Assembly: GCA_963700635.1 (NCBI GenBank) | Contig: CAVOYH010000003.1 | Coordinates: 1,792,001-1,856,000 of the forward strand | DNA length: 64,000 bases | From: an uncultured Bacteroidota bacterium | Lineage (GTDB): Bacteria > Bacteroidota > Ignavibacteria > UBA10030 > UBA6906 | Direction: 5' to 3' | Shown: positions 1-64,000 of the stretch, piece by piece | Layout of the letters: the number at the start of each line of letters is the position of its first letter | How positions within the stretch are numbered: position 1 is the stretch's first letter | Notes under the pieces: generated by a model | Seen by the model: the letters and a program-made list of their open reading frames with translations, nothing else | Database searches by the model: none | Told to the model about the DNA's origin: nothing | Made by a program: the position numbers and the translations under genes

Positions 1-624
1 TGTGTCCAGTTCGGACTGCCACTCGGGAGCCCGGGGATCGTTCACCTGCGGCCCTTCCATGTGCCCGACGCGCGCATGGATGTATCCGGCGTGAGCGACA
101 GCGAGTGCGAGTGTCTCCTGCTGGTCCTGAAGGAGGGACTCGTGAACACAGCACCAGTGAGAAAAATCGGCATTGAGCTGAAGCGATGGAAGTGCCTCGA
201 GCAGGGCGCGCGTGGAAAGCGTGCTGAACGTGGCCCGTCCCCGGTGCGTTTCGTGACAGATCGGAACGCCGCTCTCTTCGCTCAGGACGAGACTCGTGCG
301 GAAGATCTTCAGGTTGTCGTCAAGGGAAAAGATGTCTCGTCCGGTGTGACAGTTGATGAGAATCGGTTTGTATTGGATCGCAGCAGCGAACCGTTCTTCG
401 AGGGAGGCACAGTGCTCGTCGGCGGTACGCCCCTCGGTGGTTATCATGGCAACGAATTTCAATTCGAGCGCCTCATGACGCTCGATGCATTCCTGCGGTG
501 ATGCATGGAGCGAAGGGAGATGGATCTCGGATCCATCAAAGCCCCACCCATACACCTTTTCCAGGAATTGCTCCAATGGGAGTGCATCGAGGTCCCATTT
601 CGATCGAATCACGAGAAGCTCCAT
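1..624 (-). CDS. Sugar phosphate isomerase/epimerase, xylose isomerase-like TIM barrel (3' end runs off the window)
   Basis: Not in the ORF track. Manual translation from ATG 624 gives MELLVIRSKWDLD...GFDGSEI...HTGRD...CHETHRGR...NADFSHWCCVHESLL...YIHARVG...GPQVNDPRAPEW, open to position 1. The E/D/H pattern fits AP-endonuclease-2-like barrels. Confidence 0.8.
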   Translation of the reverse strand, partial: MELLVIRSKWDLDALPLEQFLEKVYGWGFDGSEIHLPSLHASPQECIERHEALELKFVAMITTEGRTADEHCASLEERFAAAIQYKPILINCHTGRDIFSLDDNLKIFRTSLVLSEESGVPICHETHRGRATFSTLSTRALLEALPSLQLNADFSHWCCVHESLLQDQQETLALAVAHAGYIHARVGHMEGPQVNDPRAPEWQSELDT

Positions 625-679
625 CAGGTCATCCGTGCTGGTGGGAGAGTATGGATGGGGGCCGGACCGACTGCGCCCC

Positions 680-3316
680 TCATGTATAGTTGAGTACAAG
701 CGTTGTTTCGCGGCCGGCGGGTAGGCGGAAAAGGAGACGGGCAGGGTGCCCGGGAAGTGACGTTGGTGGAAGGTTGACGTTCTCCCGCGCATCAACATCA
801 AGGTCTGCTTCGCAGCCGGCCGGGATACGGACGGTCAGTTGCCTGTTCCCCTTCTCGCCTTCCGTCTGGAAAAACAGTTCTCCCCGGGGAGTTGGTACCG
901 CGAGCGTCACTGTCGTAAGATCGGCAGGCTGGGGTCTGATGCGACAACGTGCGAAGCCCGGAGCCGTGGGGGTGATCCCCGCAACTCCCATGAACAGGAG
1001 ATAGAGCGGTACAACCGCGCAATGGCTCCAGAGGTCGCTGCTGTCCGGTTTTGCGTCCCAGACCTCTGCGATCGTGTTGTTCAGAATGACGGAATCCATC
1101 CGGGCCCACCGGTTCCTGAATTCGTTGAGGATCACGTCAGTCCGGCCTCCCCGCGCCAGTGCCCAGTAGCGCCAGCATGCATTGGCGGGGTAGGAGAGTC
1201 CCATCTGGGGGGGAGGGTCGGCGAGCGACTCCAGCGATGGTCCGGTTCGACCTTCCGGGCAGAAATCAAAAAGGAGAGCGGTTGCGGTTGAGCGGTCGCA
1301 GAGGCGAGGCTGTTTCTGTTCTCCGAGCCAGGGGAGGTTGATGATGAACCTGCCTTCGTCATCACTCCAGAATGCGCGCACGGCGGCGTGATGGATGTCA
1401 TCGCTCATCTGTTCTGCAAACTCCGCCCATCGGCTTTCGCCGTACGCGCGTGCGAGCGGGGCGAATGCATGGCGGAGCATTGCCGCAGCGTAGAGATTGA
1501 ACGCACACTGCTTGTGTTCCTGATGTCCGCGGGCATAGGCATAGTGATCCATCCAGACGTTCGGCAGTCCGAGTCCTGTGACCGGAAGGAGCCCGTCGCC
1601 GGCGCGGATCCGATGGAGGTAGTCGACGAATCGCTGATACCGGGTCCACGGCTCCCGCACGGCGACCAGATCGCCCGTGTAGAGATAGTGGTGATAACAA
1701 TCGAAACCGAATCCGATGCTGTGGTCGAGCAGGGGTCCCCAGATCGTCATGTCGATCTGCCGCTCCATGGTGCGGGCGAGACGATCGTAGGCCGGCCAGC
1801 AATCGAAGAAGTAGCCATCGAGCATGAGGCCCTGGCTGAACGTGGAGAGGAATCGGGCCGGGAGCCGCCGTTCGCCGAAGGCCAGATACACTGCGTGGAG
1901 CTGGTGCGAACCGTCCCCGCTGTACTGCTGACGCTCGCGTCCCATACCGTCGACCGCAGTTTCCTGGGCGGAATTCAATAGAGTGTTGACAGAGGCGTCC
2001 ATGAGTCGCTGTAAGGCTGGTTCGTTCACCCGGACAACGGGCGTGACGGGCCAGGGGAAGACTCTGCGAAGGACGCCCACGTTGCGGATGCTGACGGGGC
2101 CGCGTGTCCCGCGGCAATGGATCTGGAGCCAGCGACAGCTCTCAAAATCGAACGTCTGGAAGGTTTCTCCCCCTCCCGCGCAGATGAATCGGGCCCACGA
2201 ATGGAAATGCGTATTCAGAAGAGGCGGCCCCCCTATCGTATGCCCTTCCTGCACCATGACTTCTATAATGGTGCCCGGCGGGGCTTCGATGGAGAAGAAG
2301 GGGAAACCGACGATCTGCTCGTCAAGTTCAAAGGTCAGTGCCACGGAGGAAATGCCATCGAGATCGAAATCCCAGCGGTTGGGTTCAGGCGCCCGGACAT
2401 CCGTTGCCGAGGTCTGGAACGCATCGGGAGCCAGCACATCAAAGTACTCGTCCGCCGGACGGAGCCAGGTAATGGCATGCGCTTCGGAAAGTTGCCGCAC
2501 GAGGACCGGGTGTTCGTCCAGCATTGGAATGCTGCGTGGGACAAGTGCAGATATTGTCCGGTCTGCGCGCGTATCGAGGAGATCGTCCGGGTGCGTGGAA
2601 CAGGAAGGCGGCAGGTTTGCGGGACACTGCAGGGTGAGCGGAGGCAGCCAGTCACTGTCAGGTGAGAACGCCGGCAGTTCCCATCCCCGGGGATGGCGTC
2701 GCGCGTCGAAGATCTCTTGAAAAGAGCGAACGTACCAGCGTTTGTACTGGCCGGGTTTCCAGGCCCGCGAAAGGTGGCACAGCCATTGCCGGTCGCTGGC
2801 GATGCTCTGTTTCGAACCATCTGTGCACTGCACATCGAGCGAAAAGATGAATCCCGGTTTTCCGATCGGGTGTGTGCCGTCGCCATGGCCATAGTACAGC
2901 ACGGTAACGCCGATCGTATGAGTTCCGGGAGCAAGAAAGGCCGTTACACTGATGGGATCGATTTCCATGCGGCGGGGGTCGGACGGCGCCGGTCCCCATT
3001 GCACTCGCTGTCCGTCAATGGTGAGGAGGTAGCGGCTGTCGGCGGCGATCCACCCGGTGGCATGTGTTACGGGTGAGGTGATGACGATATTCCGGCGGAA
3101 CAGGACGACCGTATTCGGTAGTGTCCGCCAGGACGGATACCAGAGCCATTCGGCGGGCGAGAGATCCAGGGTCATGGTCGCGTCTGCGTGCGGAATCGGT
3201 GCTGGTCTGGGAGGGTGCACGGATGAAACCTGTGACGGGTGAATGGTCCCCGGGAGGAGACTGAGCAGTGCGCCTCCGCTGGCGGCATGTTTCAGGAATG
3301 AACGTCGGTTGGACAT
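680..3316 (-). CDS. Alpha-L-rhamnosidase-like glycoside hydrolase (GH78-like) with Tat signal
   Basis: Start moved to MSNRRSFLK (twin-arginine motif, ATG 3316), just downstream of a promoter. N-terminal motifs ADSRYLL and EIFDAR; catalytic-region motifs DGMGRERQQYSGD, TIAEVW and LWSHCA; C-terminal RIRPQP...VPTPRGE. Confidence 0.85.
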   Translation of the reverse strand: MSNRRSFLKHAASGGALLSLLPGTIHPSQVSSVHPPRPAPIPHADATMTLDLSPAEWLWYPSWRTLPNTVVLFRRNIVITSPVTHATGWIAADSRYLLTIDGQRVQWGPAPSDPRRMEIDPISVTAFLAPGTHTIGVTVLYYGHGDGTHPIGKPGFIFSLDVQCTDGSKQSIASDRQWLCHLSRAWKPGQYKRWYVRSFQEIFDARRHPRGWELPAFSPDSDWLPPLTLQCPANLPPSCSTHPDDLLDTRADRTISALVPRSIPMLDEHPVLVRQLSEAHAITWLRPADEYFDVLAPDAFQTSATDVRAPEPNRWDFDLDGISSVALTFELDEQIVGFPFFSIEAPPGTIIEVMVQEGHTIGGPPLLNTHFHSWARFICAGGGETFQTFDFESCRWLQIHCRGTRGPVSIRNVGVLRRVFPWPVTPVVRVNEPALQRLMDASVNTLLNSAQETAVDGMGRERQQYSGDGSHQLHAVYLAFGERRLPARFLSTFSQGLMLDGYFFDCWPAYDRLARTMERQIDMTIWGPLLDHSIGFGFDCYHHYLYTGDLVAVREPWTRYQRFVDYLHRIRAGDGLLPVTGLGLPNVWMDHYAYARGHQEHKQCAFNLYAAAMLRHAFAPLARAYGESRWAEFAEQMSDDIHHAAVRAFWSDDEGRFIINLPWLGEQKQPRLCDRSTATALLFDFCPEGRTGPSLESLADPPPQMGLSYPANACWRYWALARGGRTDVILNEFRNRWARMDSVILNNTIAEVWDAKPDSSDLWSHCAVVPLYLLFMGVAGITPTAPGFARCRIRPQPADLTTVTLAVPTPRGELFFQTEGEKGNRQLTVRIPAGCEADLDVDARENVNLPPTSLPGHPARLLFRLPAGRETTLVLNYT

Positions 3317-3337
3317 AGATGGACGGGGATAGGACGC

Positions 3338-3366
3338 AGTATGGGAGAAATCGGGGAGAATGTCAA
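3338..3366 (-). promoter_or_regulatory. Sigma70-type promoter for the leftward arm
   Basis: Minus-strand TTGACA (3366-3361), 17-nt spacer, CATACT (3343-3338), 22 nt upstream of ATG 3316. Confidence 0.7.
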
Positions 3367-3398
3367 GACTGCGCAAATCTTCTTTTGGTGAAAAGGAC

Positions 3399-3427
3399 TT
3401 GACAATGCAGGAACATTCCCTTATACT
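3399..3427 (+). promoter_or_regulatory. Sigma70-type promoter for the TonB receptor operon
   Basis: TTGACA (3399-3404), 17-nt spacer, TATACT (3422-3427); near consensus. Confidence 0.8.
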
Positions 3428-3704: not shown

Positions 3705-6700
3705 ATGAGGCAACCATGGTACAAGTTCCCGTTGTGTCTCCTGCTGGCCCTGTTCGTGGCCATACCCGCATTTGCAGGGAACGGGAAGATCAGCGGTGTC
3801 GTCAAAGGTGCCGATGGCCAGGCGGTCGTCGGTGCCAACGTGACTGTCGAAGGGACGACACTTGGTGCTTCGGTTAATGTGGAGGGGAACTACTTTATTC
3901 TGAACGTCCCTCCAGGGACCTACCGGTTGCGGACGTCCGCGGTCGGCTTCACGCCCAAAGTGGTCGCGGGTGTGCAAGTCGGTCAGGACCAGATCGTAAC
4001 CATCGACGTCACGATGCAAAGTGAAGCCGTCGGCCTTGAGGAAGTTGTGGTTCAGGCCGACCGGCCGGTCGTCGACAAAAGTCAGACATCGTCGAAATCC
4101 ACCCTGCGCAATGATGAAATTGAAAGCCTCCCCGTCCGTTCGGCGGTGGGACTTGTGGCCACTTCGGCCAGCGCTTTCAACGGCTTCATCCGCGGCGGGC
4201 GTGTGACCGAGACCAAGACGATTGTGGACGGTGTGGACATCACCGACTCGTACTACGCGTATGAGGGGGACAACTATCACACGCCGTTCAAGAGATACAA
4301 CAGCGTTCCGCGCTATCAGGGTGCCGAGCTGAGCAATATCGGCGGACTGAACTTCTCCTCGGTAGAGCAGATGAACATCAACACGGGCGCCGTTGGTGCA
4401 GAGTACTCCTCGGCGACGGCAGGCGTCATCAACTACTCGCTGGCCGAAGGCCGCGGAGCCCTCAAGGGCAACCTGCTGGCCCGCGTGAGCCAGTTTGGCG
4501 GTCTGTCCTACGGAGGTCCGGACGTGTACTGGGACGGCTACGTTTATGACGCAGAAAAATATACGCTGAACCGGAGAGTCGACTCCCTTCGCAGCCTTCG
4601 CTCGGGTGGAGCTGCGGGCTCGGCCTATCAGACCCTCGTGTCCGACAGCGCTCGTCTGGATCGCTACACTTGGACCAAGGACAAATACATCAAGGAGAGC
4701 CCACAGCTGGAATTTGAGGGTTCGTTGAGTGGCAACCTCGCGGAAAACTGGGGCTTCTTCTTCACGGGCAAGTACTTCAACTCTTATGGCCGGCTCCCGA
4801 ACGAGTTCAACCGGCAGATCAACCTCACGTTGAAGACCAACTACAGCATCAGCGGCGACATGAAGCTGTCGGCCTTTGGTATCCTCACAGATCGCGGCGA
4901 GATCTTTGGCTGGAAGAACCGCGGCTACCAGGAGGGCTCACGCTTCTTCCTGGACGGCACGCCGAAGAACAATGGTGCCGATATTATCGGAAGCCTGAAG
5001 TGGACGCATGTGCTTGACCCTTCATCGTACTATGAGATTCAGGCAAGCATCGTTAACAGCAACACCGGGACCGGCTATTCCGATGACAACGGCGACGGGA
5101 TCTGTACCATCGCCGAAGACGGCGACTTCCTCACGATGGCGACCCTTGCGGAAGCCAACAAGTACATCTCCAACACCGATCTGACAAAGTTCTTCCGGAA
5201 TCAGGACGAGCAGGCCAGCTCCACCAGCTATCAGTTCCAGGCTGGCGGCACGACAGCCCGTCTGAGCCGCCCGGCGTTCTTCTATGAGAAGTTCAAAAAC
5301 CGGGTGATGTCGTTCAAAGGTGACTACACCAACCAGGTCACGGACAATCACCGTCTCCAGGCTGGTGCCCAGGTTCGCATGACCGAACTGGACATGACCC
5401 GCCGGGCGTCGTTCCTTGGCGCGCTGGATGCCAAGAAGCAGTTCTACAATGAAGTCTGGAACGTCAAACCGATGGAGATGGGCTTCTACCTGCAGGACCG
5501 GATGGAATATGCGGGCCTGATCATCAACGTCGGTGCCCGCCTCGACATGTGGGACCCGGATGCGAACGACTTCACGAACTACTTCGCCCCGTATCTGGAT
5601 CAGACCGTAAACTATGACACGCTCCCCGGCGTGGCGACAACGATCAAGGAACGTGTGACGCAACGTGAGCGGAAAGTGGACCCCTACTGGTTCTTCTCTC
5701 CACGCGTCGGTGTGTCGCACCCGATTTCCGACGTTGCCGCGATGTACTTCTCGTACTCGCGCAACTTCACGCCGCCGCCGTACTCCCGTATGTTCTCCAG
5801 CTACGACAATTTTGGCAACCTCTCGCTGCCGAACGATCCCAGCGTGCGCCAGGAGCCCTACCGCTCCAACAACTATGAAATCGGCGTGCAGTGGGAATTT
5901 CTGCCGAAGTTCGGGCTGAATTTCACCGCGTATCTGCGTGACATTGAGAACTACGGCTACAGCGGTTTTACCGTCATACCGCGCTCTGGTCCCACCGGAA
6001 CTACCTATGGTCTGGGGTTCTCGTCCGGATATGCTGATTCCCGTGGAGTGGAAATCACTCTGACGGCCCAGCGCCATCAGCTGGCCGATTTTGTGACCTT
6101 GACAGGTCAGGCTGCGTATTCGTACACCTACATCAAGGCGTCCGGGTTTGTGGGCAATGACAAGCTACATCAGACCACCTTCAGCACGTCGAACGGCGAC
6201 AGTGCCCGCCTCGCAGGGGACCTTCCGTTCGATGATACGAAGTTCTACAACAAGGTCCAGAACAACATCGTTGGCGGCTCCAGCACGCTCACGGGCGGAT
6301 TCGACCGCACGCACCGGATCACCTATCAGTTCGTGCTTGCGTTCCCCGAAGACATCACGCTGGCGTCGGTCGGCACGTTCCAGAGCGGCTTCTTCTACGC
6401 TCTCCAGAGCGTCGATCCACGCAGCAAAGGGCGCGAGCTCGCAGAAGGTCCCTGGAACAAGAACGTGAGCCTGCGTCTGGAGAAGGGATTCTCATTCAGC
6501 GGCATTCATGTTGCAGTGTTTGCGGATGTTGAGAACCTCTTCAACTGGCAGAACATCATCGGTTACGACAACACCACGACTGGTGCGACTCTCTGGGAGG
6601 ATACCAACGCTGGAAAGGCGAAGGATCCTGTGACTAATGAAGTGCTCGGACCCGATCCGACCGGCTCCAAGAGGCGTCCGGTGGGTGAAGACGGTACATA

Positions 6701-6752
6701 CTTCTACGGGTTCCCGCGGGAGTTCTACTTCGGCGTCCGGGTGAACTTCTAA
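3705..6752 (+). CDS. TonB-dependent outer-membrane receptor with N-terminal carboxypeptidase-regulatory-like domain
   Basis: 1015 aa; RBS AGGAGG; Sec signal; GKISGVV...GNYFILNVPPGTY domain; EEVVV TonB-box-like segment; plug motifs IRGGR...IVDGVDI and GAEYSSATAGVIN; barrel motifs SPRVGVSHPI and NYEIG; C-terminal Phe (GVRVNF). Confidence 0.92.
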   Translation: MRQPWYKFPLCLLLALFVAIPAFAGNGKISGVVKGADGQAVVGANVTVEGTTLGASVNVEGNYFILNVPPGTYRLRTSAVGFTPKVVAGVQVGQDQIVTIDVTMQSEAVGLEEVVVQADRPVVDKSQTSSKSTLRNDEIESLPVRSAVGLVATSASAFNGFIRGGRVTETKTIVDGVDITDSYYAYEGDNYHTPFKRYNSVPRYQGAELSNIGGLNFSSVEQMNINTGAVGAEYSSATAGVINYSLAEGRGALKGNLLARVSQFGGLSYGGPDVYWDGYVYDAEKYTLNRRVDSLRSLRSGGAAGSAYQTLVSDSARLDRYTWTKDKYIKESPQLEFEGSLSGNLAENWGFFFTGKYFNSYGRLPNEFNRQINLTLKTNYSISGDMKLSAFGILTDRGEIFGWKNRGYQEGSRFFLDGTPKNNGADIIGSLKWTHVLDPSSYYEIQASIVNSNTGTGYSDDNGDGICTIAEDGDFLTMATLAEANKYISNTDLTKFFRNQDEQASSTSYQFQAGGTTARLSRPAFFYEKFKNRVMSFKGDYTNQVTDNHRLQAGAQVRMTELDMTRRASFLGALDAKKQFYNEVWNVKPMEMGFYLQDRMEYAGLIINVGARLDMWDPDANDFTNYFAPYLDQTVNYDTLPGVATTIKERVTQRERKVDPYWFFSPRVGVSHPISDVAAMYFSYSRNFTPPPYSRMFSSYDNFGNLSLPNDPSVRQEPYRSNNYEIGVQWEFLPKFGLNFTAYLRDIENYGYSGFTVIPRSGPTGTTYGLGFSSGYADSRGVEITLTAQRHQLADFVTLTGQAAYSYTYIKASGFVGNDKLHQTTFSTSNGDSARLAGDLPFDDTKFYNKVQNNIVGGSSTLTGGFDRTHRITYQFVLAFPEDITLASVGTFQSGFFYALQSVDPRSKGRELAEGPWNKNVSLRLEKGFSFSGIHVAVFADVENLFNWQNIIGYDNTTTGATLWEDTNAGKAKDPVTNEVLGPDPTGSKRRPVGEDGTYFYGFPREFYFGVRVNF

Positions 6753-9291: not shown

Positions 9292-9318
9292 AGTCTCACT
9301 TAACACAGAGGACACGAA

Positions 9319-10344: not shown

Positions 10345-10406
10345 CCACTCGTCGCAAAATGGACATGACGATGGTAGTGCTCTAACGTACCCCTGAAAAC
10401 AGGGCT

Positions 10407-10455
10407 GGGGTAGTCTCCAGGTGCAACAGCCGTAGGGGACTACCCCTTTTCTTTT
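10407..10455 (+). terminator. Intrinsic terminator after the receptor-cargo-PorV unit
   Basis: Stem GGGGTAGTCTCC (10407-10418) pairs with GGGGACTACCCC (10435-10446) with one G-U pair; 16-nt loop; followed by TTTTCTTTT. Confidence 0.75.
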
Positions 10456-10465
10456 GAAAGAGATG

Positions 10466-10495
10466 ATTATGAATTGGCAATTGTCAGTTCATAAT
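10466..10495. promoter_or_regulatory. AT-rich 30-bp imperfect palindrome upstream of the MetE-like gene
   Basis: ATTATGAATTGGCAA-TTGTCAGTTCATAAT; 13 of 15 arm positions are complementary. It overlaps a possible TTATGA-N17-CATAAT promoter. Confidence 0.45.
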
Positions 10496-10526
10496 TCGCA
10501 CTTGTCTGGATATCGCGGGAGCCGGA

Positions 10527-22662: not shown

Positions 22663-22684
22663 ATCGGAGAACGACGAAGGAGCT

Positions 22685-46555: not shown

Positions 46556-46577
46556 TGAGCGGAAGGGAGACGACGTC

Positions 46578-49536: not shown

Positions 49537-49537
49537 T

Positions 49538-52865: not shown

Positions 52866-52948
52866 CTCTGCACGGAGAGGAGTGAGGGGCGGAGAGCAGG
52901 AACACGGAGGACGCCTGAAAAAAGTCCAGCAGTGAAAGAAGGAGAGCG

Positions 52949-53776: not shown

Positions 53777-54705
53777 TTACAACGGTCACGCTCAACCCCA
53801 TGCTCGACAAAACGGTCTACGTCGATGCAGTCCGTCATGGCGAGATTACACGAGCGCGACGGATCGAAACCATCGTCGGTGGAAAGGGTGTGAATGTCTC
53901 CCGGCAACTCCGCTGTCTGGGCACCGCGACGACGGTGGTCTGGTTTTGCGGGGGAGAAATCGGTACTATGCTGGCGCGGATGCTGGACGACGAACAGTTG
54001 CAGCATGAAGGGATTGCGGTCGATGGCATAACCCGCGAAGGCGTGACCTACCTCGACAGTGAAGGGGTAGCCACCTCGGTGTTTGAGCCCCCGCACGCTG
54101 TTTCGGCGGGCGACGTACAACGGCTGGTGTCGGCGTGTGATCACCTGATTACCACGAGCTCCTGGATGGTGTGTTGCGGGAGTTCCCCTGCGGCAATTGC
54201 GGATGGGGCGTACCGGGATATTTTGACCCGGGCGAAGGGCAGGGGGATCCGTACCGCCGTCGATTCGTACGGGCTGGCACTGCGGAATGCGCTGGAAGCC
54301 GCCCCCGAGGTCGTGAAGATGAATCGCAATGAGTACGAGACCACCCTGGAACGCACCCTCGCGAATGACACTGACGTTCTGCAGGCGCTTCAGATGTTTC
54401 TGGACAGGGGGGCATCGCTCGCCGTTCTGACCGACGGAGAGCGGCCGGCCTTTGCAGCGAGCCCGGAGGGACGATGGCGCCTCTTTCCGCCCCCCATCAC
54501 CTGCGTCAATGCCACCGGATCCGGTGACTGCATGCTTGCAGGAATCCTCTTCGGACTGGTAGAGGGATGGGATGTGCCATCGAGCCTCCGATTCGGCGCG
54601 GCGGCAGGTGCTGCCAATGCCGGACGATGGGAAGTTGCAGTCTCGTCTCGTGGGGAGGTCGACGCGTTTCTTCCGCACGTGCGTGTGGAACAGATCGTTT
54701 CTTGA
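53773..54705 (+). CDS. 1-phosphofructokinase/tagatose-6-phosphate kinase family hexose kinase
   Basis: MITTVTLNPMLD, GGKGVNVSR, VDSYG.AL, KMNRNE, NATGSGDCMLAG. Confidence 0.9.
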   Translation: MITTVTLNPMLDKTVYVDAVRHGEITRARRIETIVGGKGVNVSRQLRCLGTATTVVWFCGGEIGTMLARMLDDEQLQHEGIAVDGITREGVTYLDSEGVATSVFEPPHAVSAGDVQRLVSACDHLITTSSWMVCCGSSPAAIADGAYRDILTRAKGRGIRTAVDSYGLALRNALEAAPEVVKMNRNEYETTLERTLANDTDVLQALQMFLDRGASLAVLTDGERPAFAASPEGRWRLFPPPITCVNATGSGDCMLAGILFGLVEGWDVPSSLRFGAAAGAANAGRWEVAVSSRGEVDAFLPHVRVEQIVS

Positions 54706-54740
54706 TATCAAATAATCGTTCATTCTGAAAGGTATTCGCT

Positions 54741-57077: not shown

Positions 57078-57091
57078 GGCCCGGAGAAACG

Positions 57092-58249
57092 CTGACAATT
57101 CTCATCGCGCCAGATTCCTTCAAAGGATCGCTGCGCGCCGAGGAAGCCGCCACCGCGATGGCGTCCGGTGTGAACGACGCATGCCCCGGAGCGCGGACGC
57201 TTCTGCATCCGGTGGCCGACGGGGGCGAAGGATTGGTCGACCTCCTGGTCCCCGCCCTGGATGGCGTCATGGCCGTCACCAGAGTTCACGGTCCTCTTCC
57301 GGGACAGCATGTCGATGCCCGTTGGGGATATGTCGGCAGCCGCCGTCTCGCGATCATTGAAATGGCGCAGGCCGCGGGATTGAACCTGGTTCCCGGTGCA
57401 GAGCGCGACCCACGGCTCACGACGACGCTCGGAGTCGGGGAACTCATGCTGGCTGCCCTTGATCGTGGCGCGCATGAAATCCTCATGGGGATCGGGGGAA
57501 GCGCAACAAACGATGGCGGCGCCGGCATGGCTACCGCGCTCGGCGTCCGCTTTCTCGACCGGGAAGGACGTCCGCTCGCCCCCGGTGGCGCAGCTCTCCG
57601 GAACCTGGTACGGATCGACCGCTCCTCCTGCGATCCCCGCCTGTCTGCGCTGGCGGTTACGGTTGCGTGTGACGTGCAGAATCCGTTGACAGGGCCGGAG
57701 GGCGCCTCAATCGTCTATGGTCCGCAGAAAGGTGCGACCACTGCGATTGCCCTGGAACTCGATCAGTCTCTCCGGCAGTATGCAGCCAGGATTCGTGACG
57801 GTCTCGGGATTGATGTCGAATTGATGCCCGGTTCCGGAGCGGCAGGCGGTCTGGGGGCGGGTCTGGCGGCGTTCTGCTCCGCCCGGCTTCGTTCGGGAAT
57901 CGATATTGTGCTCGATGCCACCGGCTTCGACGAAAAGCTCGGGCAGGCAGACCTTGTGCTGACCGGCGAGGGAATGATTGACGCTCAGACGACATTCGGC
58001 AAAGCCCTTGCCGGTGTTGTGAAAAGGGCGCAGAAAGCCCACCGACCCGTCGTCGCAATTGCCGGGAACATTCAGGGTGACCGGTCAACGCTTCTTCGGT
58101 CTGATGCGTTCCGGTTTGTTGCATCGCTGGTAGATGACGTCACGACAGTGGAGGTGGCAATGACGCGTGCGGGAGAGCTGTTGCGGGCAAAGACTGCCGA
58201 AGTCATGCGGACTGTTGTTCTCCGTGATGACGGTACACAAACGCGATGA
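57092..58249 (+). CDS. glxK: Glycerate kinase (GlxK/GarK family)
   Basis: ILIAPDSFKGSL, PVADGGEG, IEMAQAAGL, GIGGSATNDGG, CDV.NPL.G, YGPQKG, GAAGGLG, TGEG.ID.QT.FGK. The likely start is CTG 57092; the start is uncertain. Confidence 0.92.
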   Translation: MTILIAPDSFKGSLRAEEAATAMASGVNDACPGARTLLHPVADGGEGLVDLLVPALDGVMAVTRVHGPLPGQHVDARWGYVGSRRLAIIEMAQAAGLNLVPGAERDPRLTTTLGVGELMLAALDRGAHEILMGIGGSATNDGGAGMATALGVRFLDREGRPLAPGGAALRNLVRIDRSSCDPRLSALAVTVACDVQNPLTGPEGASIVYGPQKGATTAIALELDQSLRQYAARIRDGLGIDVELMPGSGAAGGLGAGLAAFCSARLRSGIDIVLDATGFDEKLGQADLVLTGEGMIDAQTTFGKALAGVVKRAQKAHRPVVAIAGNIQGDRSTLLRSDAFRFVASLVDDVTTVEVAMTRAGELLRAKTAEVMRTVVLRDDGTQTR

Positions 58250-60126
58250 TCGACCTGCACTCGACACGGCGGCAATGGCTCTTTGCCATGGCCCGGGAAG
58301 CGGGGGACCGCCACTTCGATCCTGCCACGGGACTCTGTCTCATCCCCCGGGACACGCTCTGGTATGCCACCGCTCTTCTCTTCGATCCTTCCGAGGAACG
58401 CAGGGCGATCGGTAAGGCTCTGTGCGAGACACTGCCGGCAGGTGACGGGACGCATACTCCTGCGTCAATGATCGCGCTCCTTAATACAGTGAGCGAACAT
58501 CTGTCGCCGGTGGGACTCGACCATCTTCACGAAGCAATCGCCGGCGATCTCGGTATGGCCGCCGGGGTGGTCTGGCGCGACGGGAACGTGAACCATCCGC
58601 TGGGTGCCTATGCAACGCTGGTTCTCGGCGGAGAATGTGCCGGCCAGTCCTGGGCGACAGACCTGGGAAAACGTCGTCTGCTGGAATTCCAACGCATAAC
58701 AGGCGACCGGCGGCACCGGGTTCACCGTCAGGCGGAAATGTCGGAGTACATGAGTCTGACCTATACCGCACTCGACCTGGTGTTCCTGTCTCTGATCGGC
58801 GAATTCGCGCATGATAGCGAAGCACGAGCACTCGGCCGGTGGCTGGAAGAGCGACTCTGGCTCGATGTGGCGTTGCACTTCCACGCGCCGAGCGAGCAGT
58901 TTGCGGGTCCGCATTCGCGATCGTATCAGGAGGATTCCACCGGCGGATTCTCCGCATTGCACGCAGTGGTTCACGCAGCATCAGAGCGTACGCTCTTCAT
59001 GAACCCCGCGCTTTCCGTCCGGTTCGATCATCCCTCGACCCTTCTCCAGTCGGCGCTTGCGGCCATAGCGCCCCTGCATTTTCCGCCTGCCGCACAGCGG
59101 CTGATGTGGGAAAAGCCGCTTCCGTTTCTGATGCGCAAGTCAACATACTGCGAGCAGTACCATGAGAATGCTGCAGATGCTCCCGGACCGTTTGACGATG
59201 AGGTCGTTCCAGGGGGATGGCGGGAATTGTCGACGTATATGACGGAGGAATTTGCGCTTGGCTCCGCATCCCTGCCGTATGTGAATGCGGGTCATGCCGA
59301 CAGCCTGGTCCTCCGCATTCGCCGTTCTCCAGAGATCGGTGCCATGAAAGACTTTCGCTCGCTCTACACCCGCGGCGTGTTCAACGGGTCGATGGTCGGA
59401 CGGGCAAACCGGTGTCATGTGACCGGCGGCCTGATTGACGCAAGCTATCTTTATGAAGAAAGCCGGTGCGCGGTCTACCAGCACCGCGATCGGGCGATCG
59501 TCTTTGCGACACCAAAACGGACCGGACACACGGACATCACGGAATTCCGGCTCGATGTTCTTGCGGGGTGGTATGAACCGTTCGATGCAATGGCGCTGGG
59601 AGGCCGGCCTGTCGATCGGCTTCCTGTGGAGGCAGGTCCTTCTGCACGGTTCTGTTTCCATGACTATCGCACCTATGGCGTGATTATCCCTCTGGAGTTG
59701 TCGCCTGCCTCCGATTCCGCTCCCATCCGGCTCCACACATTCGGTGAGCATCTGATGCTGTCTCTGGTCAATTATTCCGGACCTGTCACCAGCGTCAGCC
59801 GCGACGAGGTGAATGGCTGGCGGAACGGCTTCTTCATCCACCTGATGGCAGCCGAAGAGTTTGCGTCCTTTGAGGAGTTCGTCCGGTGGGCCGGGGAGGT
59901 GAACGTTTCGGAAACTCTGCTCCCGGGGTTCATACGCCAGGTCGTTGTGGAATCTCCGGACGGGCCGATGTGTGCCCGGTATGATCCCTTCCGTGAGCTT
60001 TTTCTGTCACGAACGTTTCGCGGTGAGGAGGACGTGACGGACCATTTATCCATCGAGGCGGGCGTCGCGGGTGAATCGCTCCTGTCTCCGCTTACGCTGT
60101 TTGGATCGGAGGCGAGGCCTGCATGA
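58246..60126 (+). CDS. Uncharacterised 626-aa protein, possible distant family B member without signal peptide
   Basis: NVNH, SEYMSLTY, FAGPHSRSY and STYMTEEFALGS parallel TENH, GEFDSPTY, YGGGHSRDY and YTFMTRRYVLGS of 37261..39052; ATGA overlaps at both ends. Confidence 0.7.
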   Translation: MIDLHSTRRQWLFAMAREAGDRHFDPATGLCLIPRDTLWYATALLFDPSEERRAIGKALCETLPAGDGTHTPASMIALLNTVSEHLSPVGLDHLHEAIAGDLGMAAGVVWRDGNVNHPLGAYATLVLGGECAGQSWATDLGKRRLLEFQRITGDRRHRVHRQAEMSEYMSLTYTALDLVFLSLIGEFAHDSEARALGRWLEERLWLDVALHFHAPSEQFAGPHSRSYQEDSTGGFSALHAVVHAASERTLFMNPALSVRFDHPSTLLQSALAAIAPLHFPPAAQRLMWEKPLPFLMRKSTYCEQYHENAADAPGPFDDEVVPGGWRELSTYMTEEFALGSASLPYVNAGHADSLVLRIRRSPEIGAMKDFRSLYTRGVFNGSMVGRANRCHVTGGLIDASYLYEESRCAVYQHRDRAIVFATPKRTGHTDITEFRLDVLAGWYEPFDAMALGGRPVDRLPVEAGPSARFCFHDYRTYGVIIPLELSPASDSAPIRLHTFGEHLMLSLVNYSGPVTSVSRDEVNGWRNGFFIHLMAAEEFASFEEFVRWAGEVNVSETLLPGFIRQVVVESPDGPMCARYDPFRELFLSRTFRGEEDVTDHLSIEAGVAGESLLSPLTLFGSEARPA

Positions 60127-61040
60127 AGTCGAACTCCGGTTCCTTCCGGAGCAATGCCTCCGGTTATCTGTTCATTGCGCCGTGGTTGCTGGGATTCTTT
60201 CTCCTGACGGCGGGACCGATGGTTGCGTCGCTGTATATCAGTACAACATCCTGGACCATGCTCTCGCCGCCGGTGTCGGTGGGACTTGCCAACTACGAAC
60301 GGATCCTCACGGATGATCCCCTCTTTCTGAAGAGCCTGGAGAACACTCTTTATTATGTAGTGTTCTCGGTGCCGCTGGGAATCGTCATTGCGCTCCTTCT
60401 TGCGCTTCTGCTCCATCAGCGGGCGCGCGGGATGGGTGCCTTCCGGACGTCGTTTTTTCTCCCCTCGATAACCAACATGGTCGCGGTCTCGATGCTCTGG
60501 CTCTGGGTTTTCAATCCTGAATTCGGGCTCTTGAACGGGCTTCTCAGGCTGTTTGGTGTCGAAGGGCCGTTCTGGCTCCAGAGCGAAGTCTGGGCAAAAC
60601 CGGCGCTCATCCTGATGTCGCTGTGGGGGGTGGGGGGAACGATGATCATTTTCCTTGCCGCCCTCCAGGGGATTCCCCAGGAGTTGTACGAGGCCGCCGA
60701 ACTGGATGGTGCCGGGCCATCGCGGCGCTTTTTCCATATCACGCTGCCCATGATCTCGCCGGCGATGCTCTTCAACATCATCATCGGCATTATCGGCAGC
60801 TTCCAGGTGTTCACCCAGGCCTATGTGATGACCGGGACTGCGCAGCCCGGGAGCGAGGGCGGCCCGAATAACGCCACGCTGTTTGTCGTGCTCTATCTCT
60901 ACAAGAAGGCGTTTCAGGAGTTCCGGATGGGGTATGCCTCGGCGCTTGCCTGGATTCTGTTCTGCATTATCCTGGCGGCCACCATTGTCCAGATGCGGCT
61001 CTCACGCCGGTGGGTTCACTATGAAGGAGGGGGACAGTGA
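60123..61040 (+). CDS. Carbohydrate ABC transporter permease 1
   Basis: YLFIAPW, VGLANY, FRTSFFLP, LAALQGIPQELYEAAELDGA (EAA loop), GYASALAW. Confidence 0.93.
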   Translation: MKSNSGSFRSNASGYLFIAPWLLGFFLLTAGPMVASLYISTTSWTMLSPPVSVGLANYERILTDDPLFLKSLENTLYYVVFSVPLGIVIALLLALLLHQRARGMGAFRTSFFLPSITNMVAVSMLWLWVFNPEFGLLNGLLRLFGVEGPFWLQSEVWAKPALILMSLWGVGGTMIIFLAALQGIPQELYEAAELDGAGPSRRFFHITLPMISPAMLFNIIIGIIGSFQVFTQAYVMTGTAQPGSEGGPNNATLFVVLYLYKKAFQEFRMGYASALAWILFCIILAATIVQMRLSRRWVHYEGGGQ

Positions 61041-61906
61041 GTCTTTCCCCGCCCGCCGGTCGATCGTTCGGAGTGACGCTCACGCGCACCGTACCGCTGT
61101 ATGCGGCTCTGGTCCTGCTGGGGTCACTGTTTGCACTCCCTCTGCTCTGGATGGTGTCGGTTTCGCTCCAGGATATCGGAGGAGTCTTTGCACGACCGTA
61201 TCAGTGGGTCCCGGAGGTGCTGCACTGGGAAAACTATCGGGATGCGGTGACGTTGTTTCCCTTCGGCCGCTATCTCTTCAATACGTCGGTGATCACCATT
61301 TCGGTTGTTGTTCTCACGCTGCTCTCGTCGTCGCTGGTCGCATTCGGCTTCTCCCGCCTGAACTTTCGCGGGCGCAACATGTTATTTGCGGTCTGCCTGT
61401 CGACCATGATGCTCCCCGGTCAGGTCACGATGATCCCCCTCTATGTTGCGTTTGCGAAGATGGGGTGGGTGGATTCGTACCTTCCGTTAATCGTCCCTTC
61501 GCTCTTTGGATCTCCGTTTTACATCTTTCTCCTTCGCCAGTTCTTCCTGACGATCCCACGCGAATACGACGAGGCCGCCGTGCTCGATGGAGCCGGCCGG
61601 CTACGCATCTACTGGAGCATCGTTCTGCCCCTTGCGCGGCCTGCGCTTGCGACCGTCGCGCTGTTCAGCTTTGTCGGGACCTGGAACGATTTTTTCGGGC
61701 CGCTGATTTATATCAACTCCCCGGAGAAAGCGACACTCACGCTGGGGTTGCAGATGCTGAAAGCGCAGATCATCGGAACGGGCACTGTGGAATGGCATCT
61801 TCTCATGGCTGCCGCACTTCTTGTCATGGTCCCGAACATTGTGGTTTTCTTTCTTGCGCAGAAGCACTTCATCAAAGGGCTCCAGATGGGAGGGTTGCGG
61901 GGATGA
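61037..61906 (+). CDS. Carbohydrate ABC transporter permease 2
   Basis: WENY, FNT, F.GRN, MMLPGQVTMIP, FLLRQFF.TIP.EYDEAAVLDGA, WNDFFGP, AQKHFIKG. Confidence 0.93.
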   Translation: MSLSPPAGRSFGVTLTRTVPLYAALVLLGSLFALPLLWMVSVSLQDIGGVFARPYQWVPEVLHWENYRDAVTLFPFGRYLFNTSVITISVVVLTLLSSSLVAFGFSRLNFRGRNMLFAVCLSTMMLPGQVTMIPLYVAFAKMGWVDSYLPLIVPSLFGSPFYIFLLRQFFLTIPREYDEAAVLDGAGRLRIYWSIVLPLARPALATVALFSFVGTWNDFFGPLIYINSPEKATLTLGLQMLKAQIIGTGTVEWHLLMAAALLVMVPNIVVFFLAQKHFIKGLQMGGLRG

Positions 61907-63246
61907 AATACGCTGGATCATGTCTCGTGGTGCTTATCCTTGCGATGCCGGGTTGCGGAGGGGGGACGCAGTCGCCCGGGATAGCCGTTGTGTACAACTG
62001 CCCCGCCAATGCCGCGGAAATAGCCGTGCTTCAACGTGAGATCCCCGTGTTCGCGGAAAGTTCAGGTGTCAGGATCACTCTGAATCCGTTCACGGGACAG
62101 GAAAAACTGTACGCCATGATGGCGGCGGGGAAGGCACCGGACATCTTCTACACCAATGCGACCATGCGCGATCAGCTTGCAGCCGAGGGACGTATTCTGG
62201 ACCTGCGGAGCGTAAGCACAGGGGATCCGTTCGTGGACCGTCTCTGGCCACATGTCATCAGGAACGGCACGGCCGTAGATGGAGGGTGGTACAGCGTCGG
62301 GAACTGGGAGTTCACCTGCGGGGTCTACTACCGGAAGGATCTTTTTGATGCCGCCGGACTTTCCTATCCTGAGAGCTCCTGGGTGTGGGAGGATTTTGTT
62401 GCCACAGCGCGAGCCCTGACTGTCCGTCCCGCCGACGGCGGTACTCCCACCCGGTACGGGGTCTTTATCGGGAGTCATTTTGTCGAGATGCTTGAGCTCA
62501 TGAACGGGGGCGTGTTCCCCCGGGATGAGCTCTTCGTGTCCATCCCCGAAACATCGCTCGAGGTGTATCGACGGTATCGTGCGCTGATGGATGAAGGACT
62601 CATGCCGGACCTCCGGCGCATGCAGGCGCTTGGCATGCAGGCACCACAGTTGCTCCAGAGTGGTCGCGTCGCGATGCTTGTCGAAGCCGTTCCCCATCAG
62701 ACCCTGATTGAAGGACTCACCTCTCCCTGGGGGGTGGCGCCCCTTCCCGGGTTTCGGGGAAAACAACGATCGTACTTCCGGTCATCGAGTGGTGGCCTTT
62801 CTCTTTCTTCATCCACCCATGATCCTGTGGCCGCCTGGAAAGCGCTCGTCTGGATTATCGCGGGGGCGAGCATCTACCAGCCCAACCCGGTTCTGCGCGA
62901 TGTCGATTTCGTCGGGGGATGGGAGAGGAGGTTCCCGCATCTCAGGGAGAGCGGGTTCAGGGAGGTATGGGATCTGAGCCTTCAGCACAACGGCGGCGAC
63001 CCGAGGTATTTTGTCCGGTACTCCAGCGTGGTGTCCGGTCCGATTATGGAACAACTGCAGCCGCTGCTCGACAGGCTCTGGGCCAGGGAGCTCTCCGTTT
63101 CAGACCTTGCGGCAGCCGTTCCGGGGATCAACGAACGGATCCGTGCGGAACTGAGCCGTGCGGTGAAGAATCGTTCATTGCCGGCCCCCGTGCTCGAAAA
63201 GGTCCGCACAGCCCTGGATGAAAGTCATGACGCAACTGCGCGTTGA
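61903..63246 (+). CDS. Carbohydrate ABC transporter substrate-binding lipoprotein
   Basis: Start ATG 61903 (ATGA overlap); MKYAGSCLVVLILAMPG-C lipobox-like signal; AAGKAPDIFY, YYRKDLFDAAGL..P...W.WEDF, SGRVAM, WGVAPLP. Confidence 0.88.
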   Translation: MKYAGSCLVVLILAMPGCGGGTQSPGIAVVYNCPANAAEIAVLQREIPVFAESSGVRITLNPFTGQEKLYAMMAAGKAPDIFYTNATMRDQLAAEGRILDLRSVSTGDPFVDRLWPHVIRNGTAVDGGWYSVGNWEFTCGVYYRKDLFDAAGLSYPESSWVWEDFVATARALTVRPADGGTPTRYGVFIGSHFVEMLELMNGGVFPRDELFVSIPETSLEVYRRYRALMDEGLMPDLRRMQALGMQAPQLLQSGRVAMLVEAVPHQTLIEGLTSPWGVAPLPGFRGKQRSYFRSSSGGLSLSSSTHDPVAAWKALVWIIAGASIYQPNPVLRDVDFVGGWERRFPHLRESGFREVWDLSLQHNGGDPRYFVRYSSVVSGPIMEQLQPLLDRLWARELSVSDLAAAVPGINERIRAELSRAVKNRSLPAPVLEKVRTALDESHDATAR

Positions 63247-64000
63247 GCAAAACGGACCGGCAGGGTGCACCGTGTGGGCAGAGAGAGCCCTCGTTGCCGA
63301 GGTGCGGGATCTCCGGCTCACAACCCTTGTGCTCCGGTCCGGAACGGGTTCTGTTCTTGACGAACACGTGCCGCTGCCGCTGTACTGGCAGCAATATGCA
63401 GACCACCAGCATCCGGAGCGCAATGCGTCATCGGGTGGGAGGCTGACGATCACGACCGCTGCGGGAGATGCTGTGTCAGTTGTGTGCGAAGGCGCTTCGG
63501 CGAGCGGTGCGCTCGCCAGCCGGTTTAGTGTGAGTCTCTCCCTCTCTCCTGACGGTGCCATTCGTGCAATGGTCAGCGCGGAATGTGGCGTCCGGAAAGG
63601 GTCAACATGGTCTGTCACGCCGAATCCTCAGCATGGTGAATTGGAGTTCTGCAACTTCTGGCCGGCAGAGTCCTTCGTGCTCCAGCCGGACGTCACCCGA
63701 TACTATCCCGAGCTCCATGTCCGGCAGAAAGAACGGATCACGCGTATTGCCCATCACCACCTTGAAACCAGCGACAAACGGAATATCGTCCTCGAGCCCG
63801 GAGACGCCCTGGGGTGGATTCGGAAAGGCCGTGCGATTGTGTTGGAGGTACACTCGGGCGCACATGTGCACGCAGGGGTCTGCGCCTACATGTGGGATGT
63901 CCATCTTGGCATCAAGGTCTGTCGTGAAGGGATGGCTACTCAGCTCCCTGGCGGCTTTCAGGAGGCCGTCTCGTTCGGCATCAGGGAGATGACCGGTGTG
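63227..64000 (+). CDS. Hypothetical protein, 3' end beyond the window
   Basis: Not in the ORF track. The frame is open from ATG 63218/63227 to 64000: MTQLRVEQNG...LPLYWQQYADH...HGELEFCNFWP...HHHLETSDK...CAYMWDVHLG. Confidence 0.65.
   Translation, partial: MTQLRVEQNGPAGCTVWAERALVAEVRDLRLTTLVLRSGTGSVLDEHVPLPLYWQQYADHQHPERNASSGGRLTITTAAGDAVSVVCEGASASGALASRFSVSLSLSPDGAIRAMVSAECGVRKGSTWSVTPNPQHGELEFCNFWPAESFVLQPDVTRYYPELHVRQKERITRIAHHHLETSDKRNIVLEPGDALGWIRKGRAIVLEVHSGAHVHAGVCAYMWDVHLGIKVCREGMATQLPGGFQEAVSFGIREMTGV

Follow-up and report, generated by a model that had tools for sequence, protein, structure and literature searches.

The window analysed here, a 64,000-nucleotide stretch of DNA from an uncultured bacterium of the Ignavibacteria, probably holds most of a catabolic super-locus of ~63 kb and ~45 genes that resembles a polysaccharide utilization locus (PUL), lies on a single strand, is built without the SusC/SusD pair, and is led by a triad of a TonB-dependent receptor (TBDR), a large secreted protein (U1) and an outer-membrane beta-barrel of the PorV/PorQ family. 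We propose that the triad is the lineage's stand-in for SusC/SusD; its surface anchoring and glycan binding are what we infer, and binding of the U1 C-terminal domain (CTD) to the barrel is predicted by structure modelling. Three genes make up the head of the array:

3705-6752, plus strand: TBDR carrying a CarboxypepD_reg domain at its N-terminus; the array starts with this gene (TonB_dep_Rec_b-barrel 76.6 bits, CarboxypepD_reg 58 bits)
6795-9291, plus strand: U1, a secreted beta-rich protein with a type IX secretion system (T9SS)-type CTD; split by a frameshift, with the CTD on the open reading frame (ORF) 8920-9291
9319-10344, plus strand: PorV/PorQ-family outer-membrane beta-barrel (NF033709 PorV_fam, 193 bits vs. 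a cut-off of 90)

Pfam searches found no SusD family among the 43 window proteins, and in the whole genome (97% complete) both PF07980 and PF14322 gave 0 matches, under a search in which the B. thetaiotaomicron control matched. The TBDR at 3705 scored 67 bits against TIGR04056 (SusC/RagA; cut-off 368), with only the N-terminal 130 positions matched, and none of the 28 genome-wide matches to this model rose above the cut-off. The absence of a SusC/SusD pair, claimed in an earlier sequence-only reading of this DNA, is thus borne out. SusD occurs in 4 of 41 relatives and in 0 of the window's genus, and one study describes susCD as “scarcely detected” in Ignavibacteriales gene clusters (PMC10576277); together these indicate that the absence is the norm of the lineage and not specific to this locus. 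A single susCDE operon is described for Melioribacter roseus (PMC3534657). The earlier label of a “non-canonical PUL” holds for a conserved, co-directional, PUL-like locus, whereas the missing SusC/SusD pair, being lineage-wide, does not make the locus special. The locus works like a PUL yet has neither of the two defining features, a SusD neighbour and a SusC/RagA-type TBDR.

Alignment of the U1 CTD (ORF 8920-9288) with other C-termini gave matches to PorZ (E = 3.4e-5) and PorU (E = 3.1e-4), and across the window CTD and its orthologues the E-values against the PorZ C-terminus ranged from 3.4e-5 to 6.7e-7, with the usual pattern PNPY ... GxY ... ILR. Against TIGR04183 (T9SS type A sorting domain, cut-off 23 bits), orthologous CTDs in the loci L126 and L077 scored 28.2 bits, above the cut-off, and 21.9 bits. 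Of 38 orthologous loci, 36 have the end of the CTD 8-112 nt upstream of the barrel gene; four genomes enter this set twice, and one exception is cut by the locus edge. Prediction of the barrel-CTD complex, carried out on the pair from a second, colinear copy of the locus in the same assembly (copy 2), scored 0.92 vs. 0.00 for the best control, with three runs agreeing in at least 90% of contacts and a partner pLDDT of 75-76. Among solved complexes 116 of 157 attain that mark, as against 2 of 215 mismatched pairs, benchmark counts that hold only roughly for the custom alignments used.

The same arrangement is repeated in the assembly. Twelve of its 17 PorV-like genes follow a TBDR and a large variable protein (three of the 12 triads being copy-2 counterparts of others), and one more lies directly after a TBDR. 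Examples include C1:64970-71553, C1:420716-428365, C3:152748-160251, C3:163377-170839, C3:334123-339867 and C3:1885670-1892973 (contig:positions). The middle proteins span 630-1283 aa and carry a T9SS CTD above the cut-off in four triads; five or more PorV-like genes come right after the gene of a protein with an above-cut-off TIGR04183 CTD, four of them within triads. The 122 TIGR04183 matches genome-wide imply many T9SS cargoes. A review of the T9SS describes the CTDs of PorU and PorZ as retained and bound to PorV and PorQ, and suggests cognate PorV-like barrels for particular cargoes (PMC10202324).

Like the PorQ-PorZ and PorV-PorU pairs of the T9SS attachment complex, the window pair combines a PorV/PorQ-family barrel with a partner whose CTD resembles those of PorZ and PorU and is predicted to dock. 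Unlike them, it adjoins a TBDR inside a catabolic locus, is multiplied ~12-fold in the assembly with differing middle proteins, and has in U1 a predicted supersandwich of the carbohydrate-enzyme type, which is neither a sortase nor a lipopolysaccharide carrier. Full-text literature searches listed no paper describing a triad of TBDR, CTD protein and PorV-like barrel in a glycan locus. The sequence-only reading had paired “surface capture” with the absence of SusC/SusD; the absence holds, and a proposed capture module is present in the form of this triad.

As in the SusC/SusD PULs of Bacteroidia, a TBDR whose N-terminus bears a CarboxypepD_reg domain heads a co-directional cluster, the glycan-active enzymes are in part exported and in part cytoplasmic, and the cluster has inner-membrane importers and a regulator of its own. 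The locus differs in lacking a SusD family, in a TBDR far under the SusC/RagA cut-off, in a partner that is a predicted beta-supersandwich with a T9SS CTD and not a helical lipoprotein, in the PorV-like barrel as a third member, and in its size of ~63 kb, far above that of a typical PUL. Its regulator is of the IclR family, whereas those of Bacteroidia PULs are of the hybrid two-component, SusR or ECF type. TBDR-led carbohydrate loci also occur outside Bacteroidia, for example the carbohydrate utilization containing TBDR (CUT) loci of Xanthomonas, which combine a TBDR, carbohydrate-active enzymes (CAZymes), inner-membrane transporters and a regulator with no SusD; CUT-type loci are not known to include a T9SS-linked surface partner or a PorV-like barrel.

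The ORF map and family scans place every real gene from 3705 to the window end on the plus strand. The longer minus-strand ORFs at 26734, 42873, 48589, 52799 and 53641 overlie plus-strand genes with strong Pfam matches and are shadows, in agreement with the earlier claim that all genes from 3705 onward share one strand. Extension along the contig, which the same reading had called for, showed that the co-directional run continues past the window end to ~66671. The window itself holds ~44 genes; those outside the triad are as follows (GH, glycoside hydrolase family; U, protein without a family name):

680-3376, minus strand: GH78-family alpha-L-rhamnosidase-like protein, divergent from the array; Tat-type signal RRSFLK; Pfam Bac_rhamnosid_N, Bac_rhamnosid6H and Bac_rhamnosid_C all above cut-off
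10527-11555, plus strand: MetE-like protein of the Zn alkyl-transferase fold, cytoplasmic (Pfam Meth_synt_2, 147.9 bits)
11613-12458, plus strand: xylose-isomerase-like TIM protein, cytoplasmic (Pfam AP_endonuc_2, 41 bits)
12452-14659, plus strand: U2a, cytoplasmic, paralogue of 54741; without Pfam, NCBIfam or PDB relatives
14684-15550, plus strand: PhyH-family Fe/2-oxoglutarate dioxygenase (Pfam PhyH, 120 bits)
15547-17148, plus strand: U3, cytoplasmic, with a predicted GH78-like fold (AlphaFold2 (AF2) model and Foldseek)
17165-19414, plus strand: Tat-exported protein, weakly GH15-/glucoamylase-like (TIGR01577 E 2.3e-10, 39.7 bits, cut-off 820; Pfam GH15 E 0.071; signal RRQFLK)
19532-20752, plus strand: class-V aminotransferase (Pfam Aminotran_5)
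20782-22662 and 22685-24613, plus strand: SSS importers in tandem, 66% mutual identity (Pfam SSF, both)
24610-25887, plus strand: LarA-family Ni-pincer racemase/epimerase (Pfam Lar_N, LarA_C)
25970-26752, plus strand: IclR-family regulator (Pfam IclR_C, HTH_IclR)
26749-27576, plus strand: xylose-isomerase-like TIM protein (Pfam AP_endonuc_2, 114 bits)
27629-29647, plus strand: Tat-exported heparinase II/III-like protein (Pfam Hepar_II_III_C, TAT_signal)
29644-30891, plus strand: class-III aminotransferase (Pfam Aminotran_3)
30885-32516, plus strand: Amidohydro_2 protein (Pfam Amidohydro_2)
32517-34898, plus strand: U5, secreted, 793 aa, with a signal peptide; no Pfam or NCBIfam family
34909-35904, plus strand: BNR/Asp-box propeller 1, secreted (Pfam BNR, Sortilin-Vps10)
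35936-37264, plus strand: GH37 trehalase-family protein, cytoplasmic (Pfam Trehalase 203 bits; NF045728 112.8 bits vs. a cut-off of 175)
37261-39052, plus strand: U6a, secreted, paralogue of 41107; split by a one-base insertion
39053 to ~40067, plus strand: BNR propeller 2, with a signal peptide (Pfam BNR, Sortilin-Vps10)
40080-41092, plus strand: BNR propeller 3, with a signal peptide (Pfam BNR, Sortilin-Vps10)
41107-42930, plus strand: U6b, secreted, 607 aa; without Pfam or PDB relatives
42930-50641, plus strand: PfkB kinase, GH38, FAA-hydrolase family protein, M20 deacylase, ROK kinase and URO-D/MtaA-like protein, all cytoplasmic (Pfam); the GH38 protein (start 43868) is mannosylglycerate-hydrolase-like (NF007331, 536 bits vs. 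a cut-off of 1138), and the FAA-hydrolase family protein scores 204 bits against NF053535 (2,4-didehydro-3-deoxy-L-rhamnonate hydrolase; cut-off 500)
50625-52865 (ORF 50613), plus strand: U7, secreted, possibly distantly heparinase II/III-like by weak profile links
52949-58249, plus strand: DeoC/LacD-type aldolase, 1-PFK-type hexose kinase (TIGR03168, 237.6 bits, above cut-off), U2b and glycerate kinase (Gly_kinase, 453 bits) (Pfam DeoC, PfkB, Gly_kinase)
54741-57077, plus strand: U2b, paralogue of U2a
58246-60126, plus strand: U6', cytoplasmic, distant U6 relative by hhalign; no Pfam family
60123-61040, plus strand: ABC permease 1 (Pfam BPD_transp_1)
61037-61906, plus strand: ABC permease 2 (Pfam BPD_transp_1)
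61903-63246, plus strand: lipoprotein-type solute-binding protein (SBP; Pfam SBP_bac_1, signal read from the N-terminus)
63218-64000, continuing to 64594, plus strand: U8; no Pfam family
after U8, to 66671, plus strand: U9, last gene of the co-directional run

At E<=1e-3, 30 of the 43 candidate proteins have a Pfam family and 13 have none, and an NCBIfam family is absent from 16 of the 43. The Pfam content of the glycan type comprises GH78, GH37, GH38, heparinase II/III_C, three BNR proteins and the TBDR, with the enzymes co-localized with the IclR regulator; that of sugar catabolism comprises two PfkB proteins, ROK, glycerate kinase, DeoC aldolase and two xylose-isomerase-like TIM proteins; and that of transport comprises two SSS proteins and the ABC/SBP system. 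Class III and V aminotransferases, Amidohydro_2, M20, PhyH, LarA, MetE-like, URO-D-like and FAA-hydrolase proteins are further members. Judged on this content, the earlier statement that nearly every gene is sugar-related is fair but generous. In the wider sense of a CAZyme gene cluster, a co-directional group of CAZyme, transporter and regulator, the array counts as one by its Pfam families.

Ten large proteins had been singled out in the sequence-only reading as having no nameable family. Seven of them (12452, 15547, 32517, 37261, 41107, 54741 and 58246) have no family in Pfam or NCBIfam, and Pfam is blank for these even at E<=5 except for a noise-level TPR_14 match (E = 0.32) on 12452. The remaining three (34888, 39053 and 40080) turn out to be BNR/Asp-box propellers, which match the F510_1955 glycosylhydrolase-family model of NCBIfam below its cut-off. 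Two further nameless proteins beyond that list are those at 6795 (U1) and 50613 (U7). Nameless here refers to Pfam and NCBIfam; some of these proteins may already sit in recent CAZy families.

The AF2 model of U3 (48-sequence alignment; pLDDT 89, pTM 0.92) shows an (alpha/alpha)6 barrel followed by a C-terminal beta-sandwich, and the first nine Foldseek ranks are GH78 rhamnosidases (8iwf: E = 1.4e-14, TMq 0.66, 13% identity), with GH116, GH63, GH100 and GH94 below them. By this model U3 is a six-hairpin protein with a GH78-like fold. It has the domain order of GH78 rhamnosidases and finds its best structural matches among them, but identity is 9-14%, and U3 is smaller (533 aa), cytoplasmic and without the N-terminal GH78 domains. 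Pfam gave no family for U3 at E<=5, hence no Bac_rhamnosid6H match; the PDB sequence search returned only a weak GH116 row (E = 0.017), and the N-terminus has no signal peptide.

For U1, which has no Pfam family, the AF2 model reached a pLDDT of 79. Foldseek returned nothing at E<=1e-3 and the PDB sequence search a chance-level row only. An exhaustive VIA search aligned ~240-275 residues of model region 30-516 (Z 14-16.5, rmsd 3.5-4.0) with N-domains of the beta-supersandwich type in GH65, GH94, GH116 and GH15 enzymes, and with related proteins. U1 is thus modelled as a galactose-mutarotase-like supersandwich, unlike the helical SusD.

The remaining nameless proteins fall into few families. 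U2 comprises 12452 and 54741 (38% identical) and has at least 1145 homologues, every name given among the 120 listed being “hypothetical protein”; none of 21 members matched Pfam, and the PDB profile search found no relatives. In the ESM Atlas, GH115, GH67N and GH20b clusters are look-alikes of U2 at 0.95-0.96, behind unnamed clusters. U6 comprises 37261 and 41107, 45% identical in the N-part and, in another frame, 32% in the C-part, with 58246 (U6') as a distant member (hhalign probability 92%, E = 5.3e-7, 418 columns). Among 13 U6 members there were 0 relevant Pfam matches and no real PDB profile relative, and the ESM Atlas gave only unnamed or “hypothetical” clusters. U7 has a Pfam Hepar_II_III_N match at E = 0.14 and an hhalign link to the heparinase-like family of 27629 (probability 23%, E = 8.8e-4, 234 columns) with an HxHADxNS stretch in common, weak but consistent signs that it may be distantly heparinase II/III-like. 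Two other candidate relationships, of U6 to the heparinase-like family and of U5 to U3, were rejected, as hhalign showed no profile link. The proteins that can be classified look carbohydrate-active, in contrast to the possibility raised earlier that most unknowns would map to non-carbohydrate families.

Examination of related genomes shows that four relatives, one of them from a different family within the order, keep the gene order from the TBDR onward. Colinear matches were found for 42 of 43 queries in a member of the same genus (G003) and for 34 of 43 in each of G022 and G019, both from outside that genus; in another family (G031), 27 of 43 matched, with some rearrangement and a locus that runs off the contig end. 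Of the core-cluster genes, U3 is the best-conserved marker. With the window's own genome included, it was found in 16 of 41 relatives and in 16 of 401 genomes sampled phylum-wide, nine of these 16 in the window's order; in G027 it is present in another context.

A search of contigs for U3 relatives gave 316 stretches, of which the best 80 were kept. Among these 80, the closest (70-77% identity) come from metagenome-assembled genomes titled Ignavibacteriota, Ignavibacteriae and “Bacteroidetes/Bacteroidota”, and those farther away (54-64%) carry the titles Kryptoniota, Rhodothermales, KSB1, Gemmatimonadetes, Acidobacteriota and Cytophagia. The neighbours found in these 80 loci at up to 10 kb from U3 were the class-V aminotransferase (43/80), PorV-like, U2 and GH15-like proteins (37/80 each), MetE-like (35/80), SSS (34/80), U1 (31/80), the TBDR (21/80) and PhyH (18/80); these counts are lower bounds, since many loci are short.

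A compact core of IclR, TBDR, U1, PorV-like barrel, U3, ABC, aminotransferase, TIM-barrel, U6, BNR, PhyH and U2 genes is carried by the Rhodothermales-titled loci L116, L121 and L122 and by two one-contig genomes, G074 and G162, both of which have the TBDR-U1-PorV-U3 set together with U2, U6, BNR, PhyH and the class-V aminotransferase. The order in G162 is IclR, TBDR, U1, PorV-like, U3, ABC permease, class-V aminotransferase, ABC permease, SBP, AP_endonuc_2, GFO oxidoreductase, U6, BNR, PhyH, a weak GH88-like protein, GFO, SDR, PhyH and U2. G343 has a reduced set only (TBDR, U1, PorV-like, U3, class-V aminotransferase, ROK and U2). Rhodothermales-, Cytophagia- and Coneutiohabitans-titled loci hold, in compact clusters, families that are widely spaced in the window, namely U3, U2, U6, BNR, class-V aminotransferase, AP_endonuc_2, PhyH, GH38 and class-III aminotransferase. 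Because genes separated by as much as 40 kb in the window are direct neighbours elsewhere, at least the core appears to be one functional system. The synteny survey suggested by the sequence-only reading thus revealed conserved clustering, both as gene order in four relatives and as the core in other classes. That one glycan serves all 63 kb would go beyond these data, and the modules vary between lineages.

Two local differences were seen. The first AP_endonuc_2-like gene (11613-12458) is matched in copy 2 alone (57% identity) and is absent from G003, G022, G019 and G031, where its flanking neighbours are conserved. The SSS tandem (20782-24613) corresponds to a single matching locus in each of these four genomes, and the pair may be a recent duplication.

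The assembly from which the window comes totals 4.2 Mb in six contigs and is rated 97% complete with 6.7% contamination. All window genes occur a second time, in colinear order and at 50-85% aa identity, running from C6 (reversed) into C4. The starts of the two contigs (C6:1-1959 and C4:1-1957) are reverse complements of each other along 1960 nt (98.5% identity), which indicates that they join there and that the break lies inside copy 2 of the locus. Colinearity extends beyond the locus, with C3:1.64-1.92 Mb corresponding to the whole of C6 plus C4:1-115 kb (C4:1-115,500) over ~280 kb at 50-90% aa identity. From ~1.49-1.50 Mb to its end (1,924,013), ~425 kb, C3 has a GC content of 0.59 vs. 0.55-0.57 elsewhere, and its tetranucleotide correlation with other parts is 0.95-0.965, whereas those parts correlate mutually at >=0.986. 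The only 16S gene found (C3:1533719-1535260) lies inside this minority part. The C3 end is probably a chimeric contig join or a co-binned relative, of a size that fits the 6.7% contamination, and on the simplest reading the window belongs to the minority organism and copy 2 is the orthologous locus of the majority organism. Intragenomic segmental duplication of 280 kb with nearly all genes kept is much less likely, given the GC content, the tetranucleotides, the colinearity of non-locus sequence and the size of the contamination.

Compared with single ORFs in intact relatives, the window has frame changes in U1 (~8905-8969, seen against the 848-aa copy-2 orthologue), U6a (~38631-38633; a single ORF in G003 and G022), BNR2 (~39937) and BNR3 (~40281 and ~40972). 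Metagenome contigs from four DNA runs of three studies, 85-99% alike, were compared at the latter four sites, the U1 site lying outside the stretch compared. One letter is missing at 38631 in X1 and X6, at 39937 in X1, X2 and X3, at 40281 in X3 and X6, and at 40972 in X1 and X2. As these independent contigs are without the extra letter, the window carries one-base insertions at 38631, 39937, 40281 and 40972. The insertions are most likely assembly errors, with the genes intact in close relatives, and further indel errors probably exist elsewhere in the assembly.

Several points weigh against the reading of the window as a single, triad-led super-locus. The window CTD of U1 scores 18.3 bits against TIGR04183, below the cut-off, and the pass of the predicted complex may reflect likeness to known PorV-CTD pairs. 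Since the supersandwich occurs in the N-domains of enzymes, glycan binding by U1 is a conjecture. The likeness of U2 to GH clusters is a language-model score and serves as a lead, and U2, U5 and U6 are without fold or family assignment. Many array members, the aminotransferases, M20, MetE-like, URO-D-like and LarA proteins among them, are not glycan-specific. Only ~1/3 of the window's families are present in the compact clusters, and G022, G019 and G031 each lack different members, so that module content varies between lineages. The window also has five or more frameshifts and sits in a contig end that is probably chimeric. Consensus sites of the promoter and terminator type occur at the level of shuffled sequence and leave the operons undefined; the best sigma-70-like site (3399-3427, 11/12 positions) lies upstream of the TBDR. 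Terminator-like hairpins at 10434, in the gap after the PorV-like gene, and at 19409, at the end of the GH15-like gene, would split the array into units.

These hairpins, the differing gene sets of the three relatives and an IclR gene internal to the array would also suit a chain of independent sugar and amino-sugar operons for different substrates, whose order is kept mainly by shared ancestry, an explanation we hold possible but doubtful. Its units might be, for example, a rhamnoside/deoxy-sugar unit, a mannosylglycerate/glycerate unit, a kinase/aldolase unit of the tagatose or sulfo-sugar type and the ABC system. The GH38 mannosylglycerate-hydrolase-like protein and the glycerate kinase do resemble a self-contained pathway, the FAA-hydrolase family protein resembles hydrolases of the L-rhamnonate pathway, and the ~280-kb synteny with copy 2 reaches well beyond the locus, so that synteny with that close relative says little. 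Against an operon chain stands the adjacency of distant array families in compact clusters of other classes. Intergenic spacing is also tight, with many overlapping stops and starts (the largest gaps being 9292-9318, 10345-10526, 19415-19531, 25888-25969 and 52866-52948), and terminator-like sites are no commoner than in shuffles.

The distribution of export signals bears on how a single super-locus would operate. Tat signals were found in the GH78-like (680), GH15-like (17165) and heparinase-like (27629) proteins by their N-termini and Pfam TAT, and Sec signals in U1, the PorV-like barrel, U5, BNR1-3, U6a/b, U7 and the lipoprotein-type SBP. The MetE-like protein, U2a/b, PhyH, U3, both aminotransferases, LarA, Amidohydro_2, GH37, GH38, the kinases, the aldolase and U6' have no signal. 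This distribution fits a route in four stages: entry through the outer membrane, trimming in the periplasm, uptake by the SSS/ABC systems and completion in the cytoplasm. The compartment scheme of the sequence-only reading holds, with a TBDR for the outer membrane, Tat/Sec enzymes for export, SSS and ABC systems for import and further enzymes that stay in the cytoplasm. Anchoring at the surface, the order of the steps, co-regulation and the substrate class are all part of the proposal that follows.

In the first step, the triad would capture and import the glycan at the outer membrane, with U1 exported by the T9SS and held at the surface by its cognate barrel through a retained CTD, in place of the SusD lipoprotein or other glycan-binding proteins of the surface. 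The imported oligosaccharide would then be trimmed in the periplasm by the Tat- and Sec-exported proteins (GH78-like, GH15-like, two heparinase-like, three BNR propellers, U5 and U6a/b), and the two SSS symporters and the ABC system would bring small products inward. Cytoplasmic finishing of the glycosidase type could fall to U3 with its GH78-like fold, U2a/b, GH37, GH38 and U6'. Tailoring and central-pathway reactions could then fall to the two aminotransferases, PhyH, the M20 deacylase, the lactonase/amidase-type Amidohydro_2 protein, LarA, the two xylose-isomerase-like TIM proteins, the kinases, the aldolase and the glycerate kinase, with IclR inside the array.

As most glycosidase-like proteins are cytoplasmic (U2a/b, U3, GH37, GH38 and U6'), one could suppose that the genes serve small glycosides or compatible solutes taken up from outside, or recycle the cell's own envelope or extracellular polysaccharide sugars, with no external polymer involved and the triad an unrelated neighbour. 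SSS and ABC importers take small molecules, and the GH38 and GH37/MGH1-like matches recall solutes of the mannosyl- or glucosyl-glycerate type. At least 10 exported enzyme-like proteins and a TBDR sit badly with this supposition, as does the position of the TBDR-U1-PorV triad directly before U3 in compact clusters of other classes, and we consider it improbable.

For the single triad-led locus, the gene content points to a decorated heteroglycan or glycoconjugate with deoxy, amino or acylated sugars as substrate. Such sugars are suggested by the rhamnosidase-like folds, the L-rhamnonate-type FAA hydrolase, the lactonase-type Amidohydro_2 protein, the two aminotransferases, M20 and PhyH, together with the GFO and AP_endonuc_2 genes of the core cluster. 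The enzyme mix names no particular glycan, as had been said before from the sequence.

Ignavibacteria and neighbouring groups occur commonly in soils, sediments and bioreactors, and their glycan uptake is poorly known because SusC/SusD is largely absent. The locus offers a concrete, testable candidate for an alternative capture module, with ~12 repeats in the assembly and conservation across classes. Conserved large families that are nameless in Pfam, NCBIfam and the PDB and lie among glycoside hydrolases are good CAZyme-family candidates, and the value of the locus lies in the triad architecture and these conserved unnamed families. If the substrate were found, a whole decorated-glycan pathway could be assigned at once. 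Tentatively, the triad might be a general SusD-independent capture device of SusD-poor FCB (Fibrobacteres-Chlorobi-Bacteroidetes) lineages such as Ignavibacteria, Rhodothermales and Kryptoniota, its substrate-binding partner anchored to the outer membrane by a dedicated barrel that keeps the secretion signal, while U2, U3, U5 and U6/U6' would be founders of new GH or lyase families and an amino-/deoxy-sugar-decorated glycan would be dismantled by an undescribed route with oxidoreductase, TIM-barrel, aminotransferase and dioxygenase genes.

An Rfam scan of the window gave no family at the gathering score. The upstream flank holds GH47, GH51, an MFS sugar porter, an AGE-family epimerase, a GFO oxidoreductase and a ribose-type ABC system, and the downstream flank holds SSS, CN-hydrolase, SDR, URO-D-like and RACo proteins. 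In and beside the locus lie the MetE-like gene (10527-11555), the URO-D/MtaA-like gene (49538-50641) and, downstream, L009:13430-15968 and L009:18270-19316, where the flank adds several URO-D/MtaA-like proteins and a RACo-type corrinoid activator. Together, the MetE-like, URO-D/MtaA-like and RACo-type genes hint at methyl-group handling, perhaps the demethylation of O-methyl sugars.

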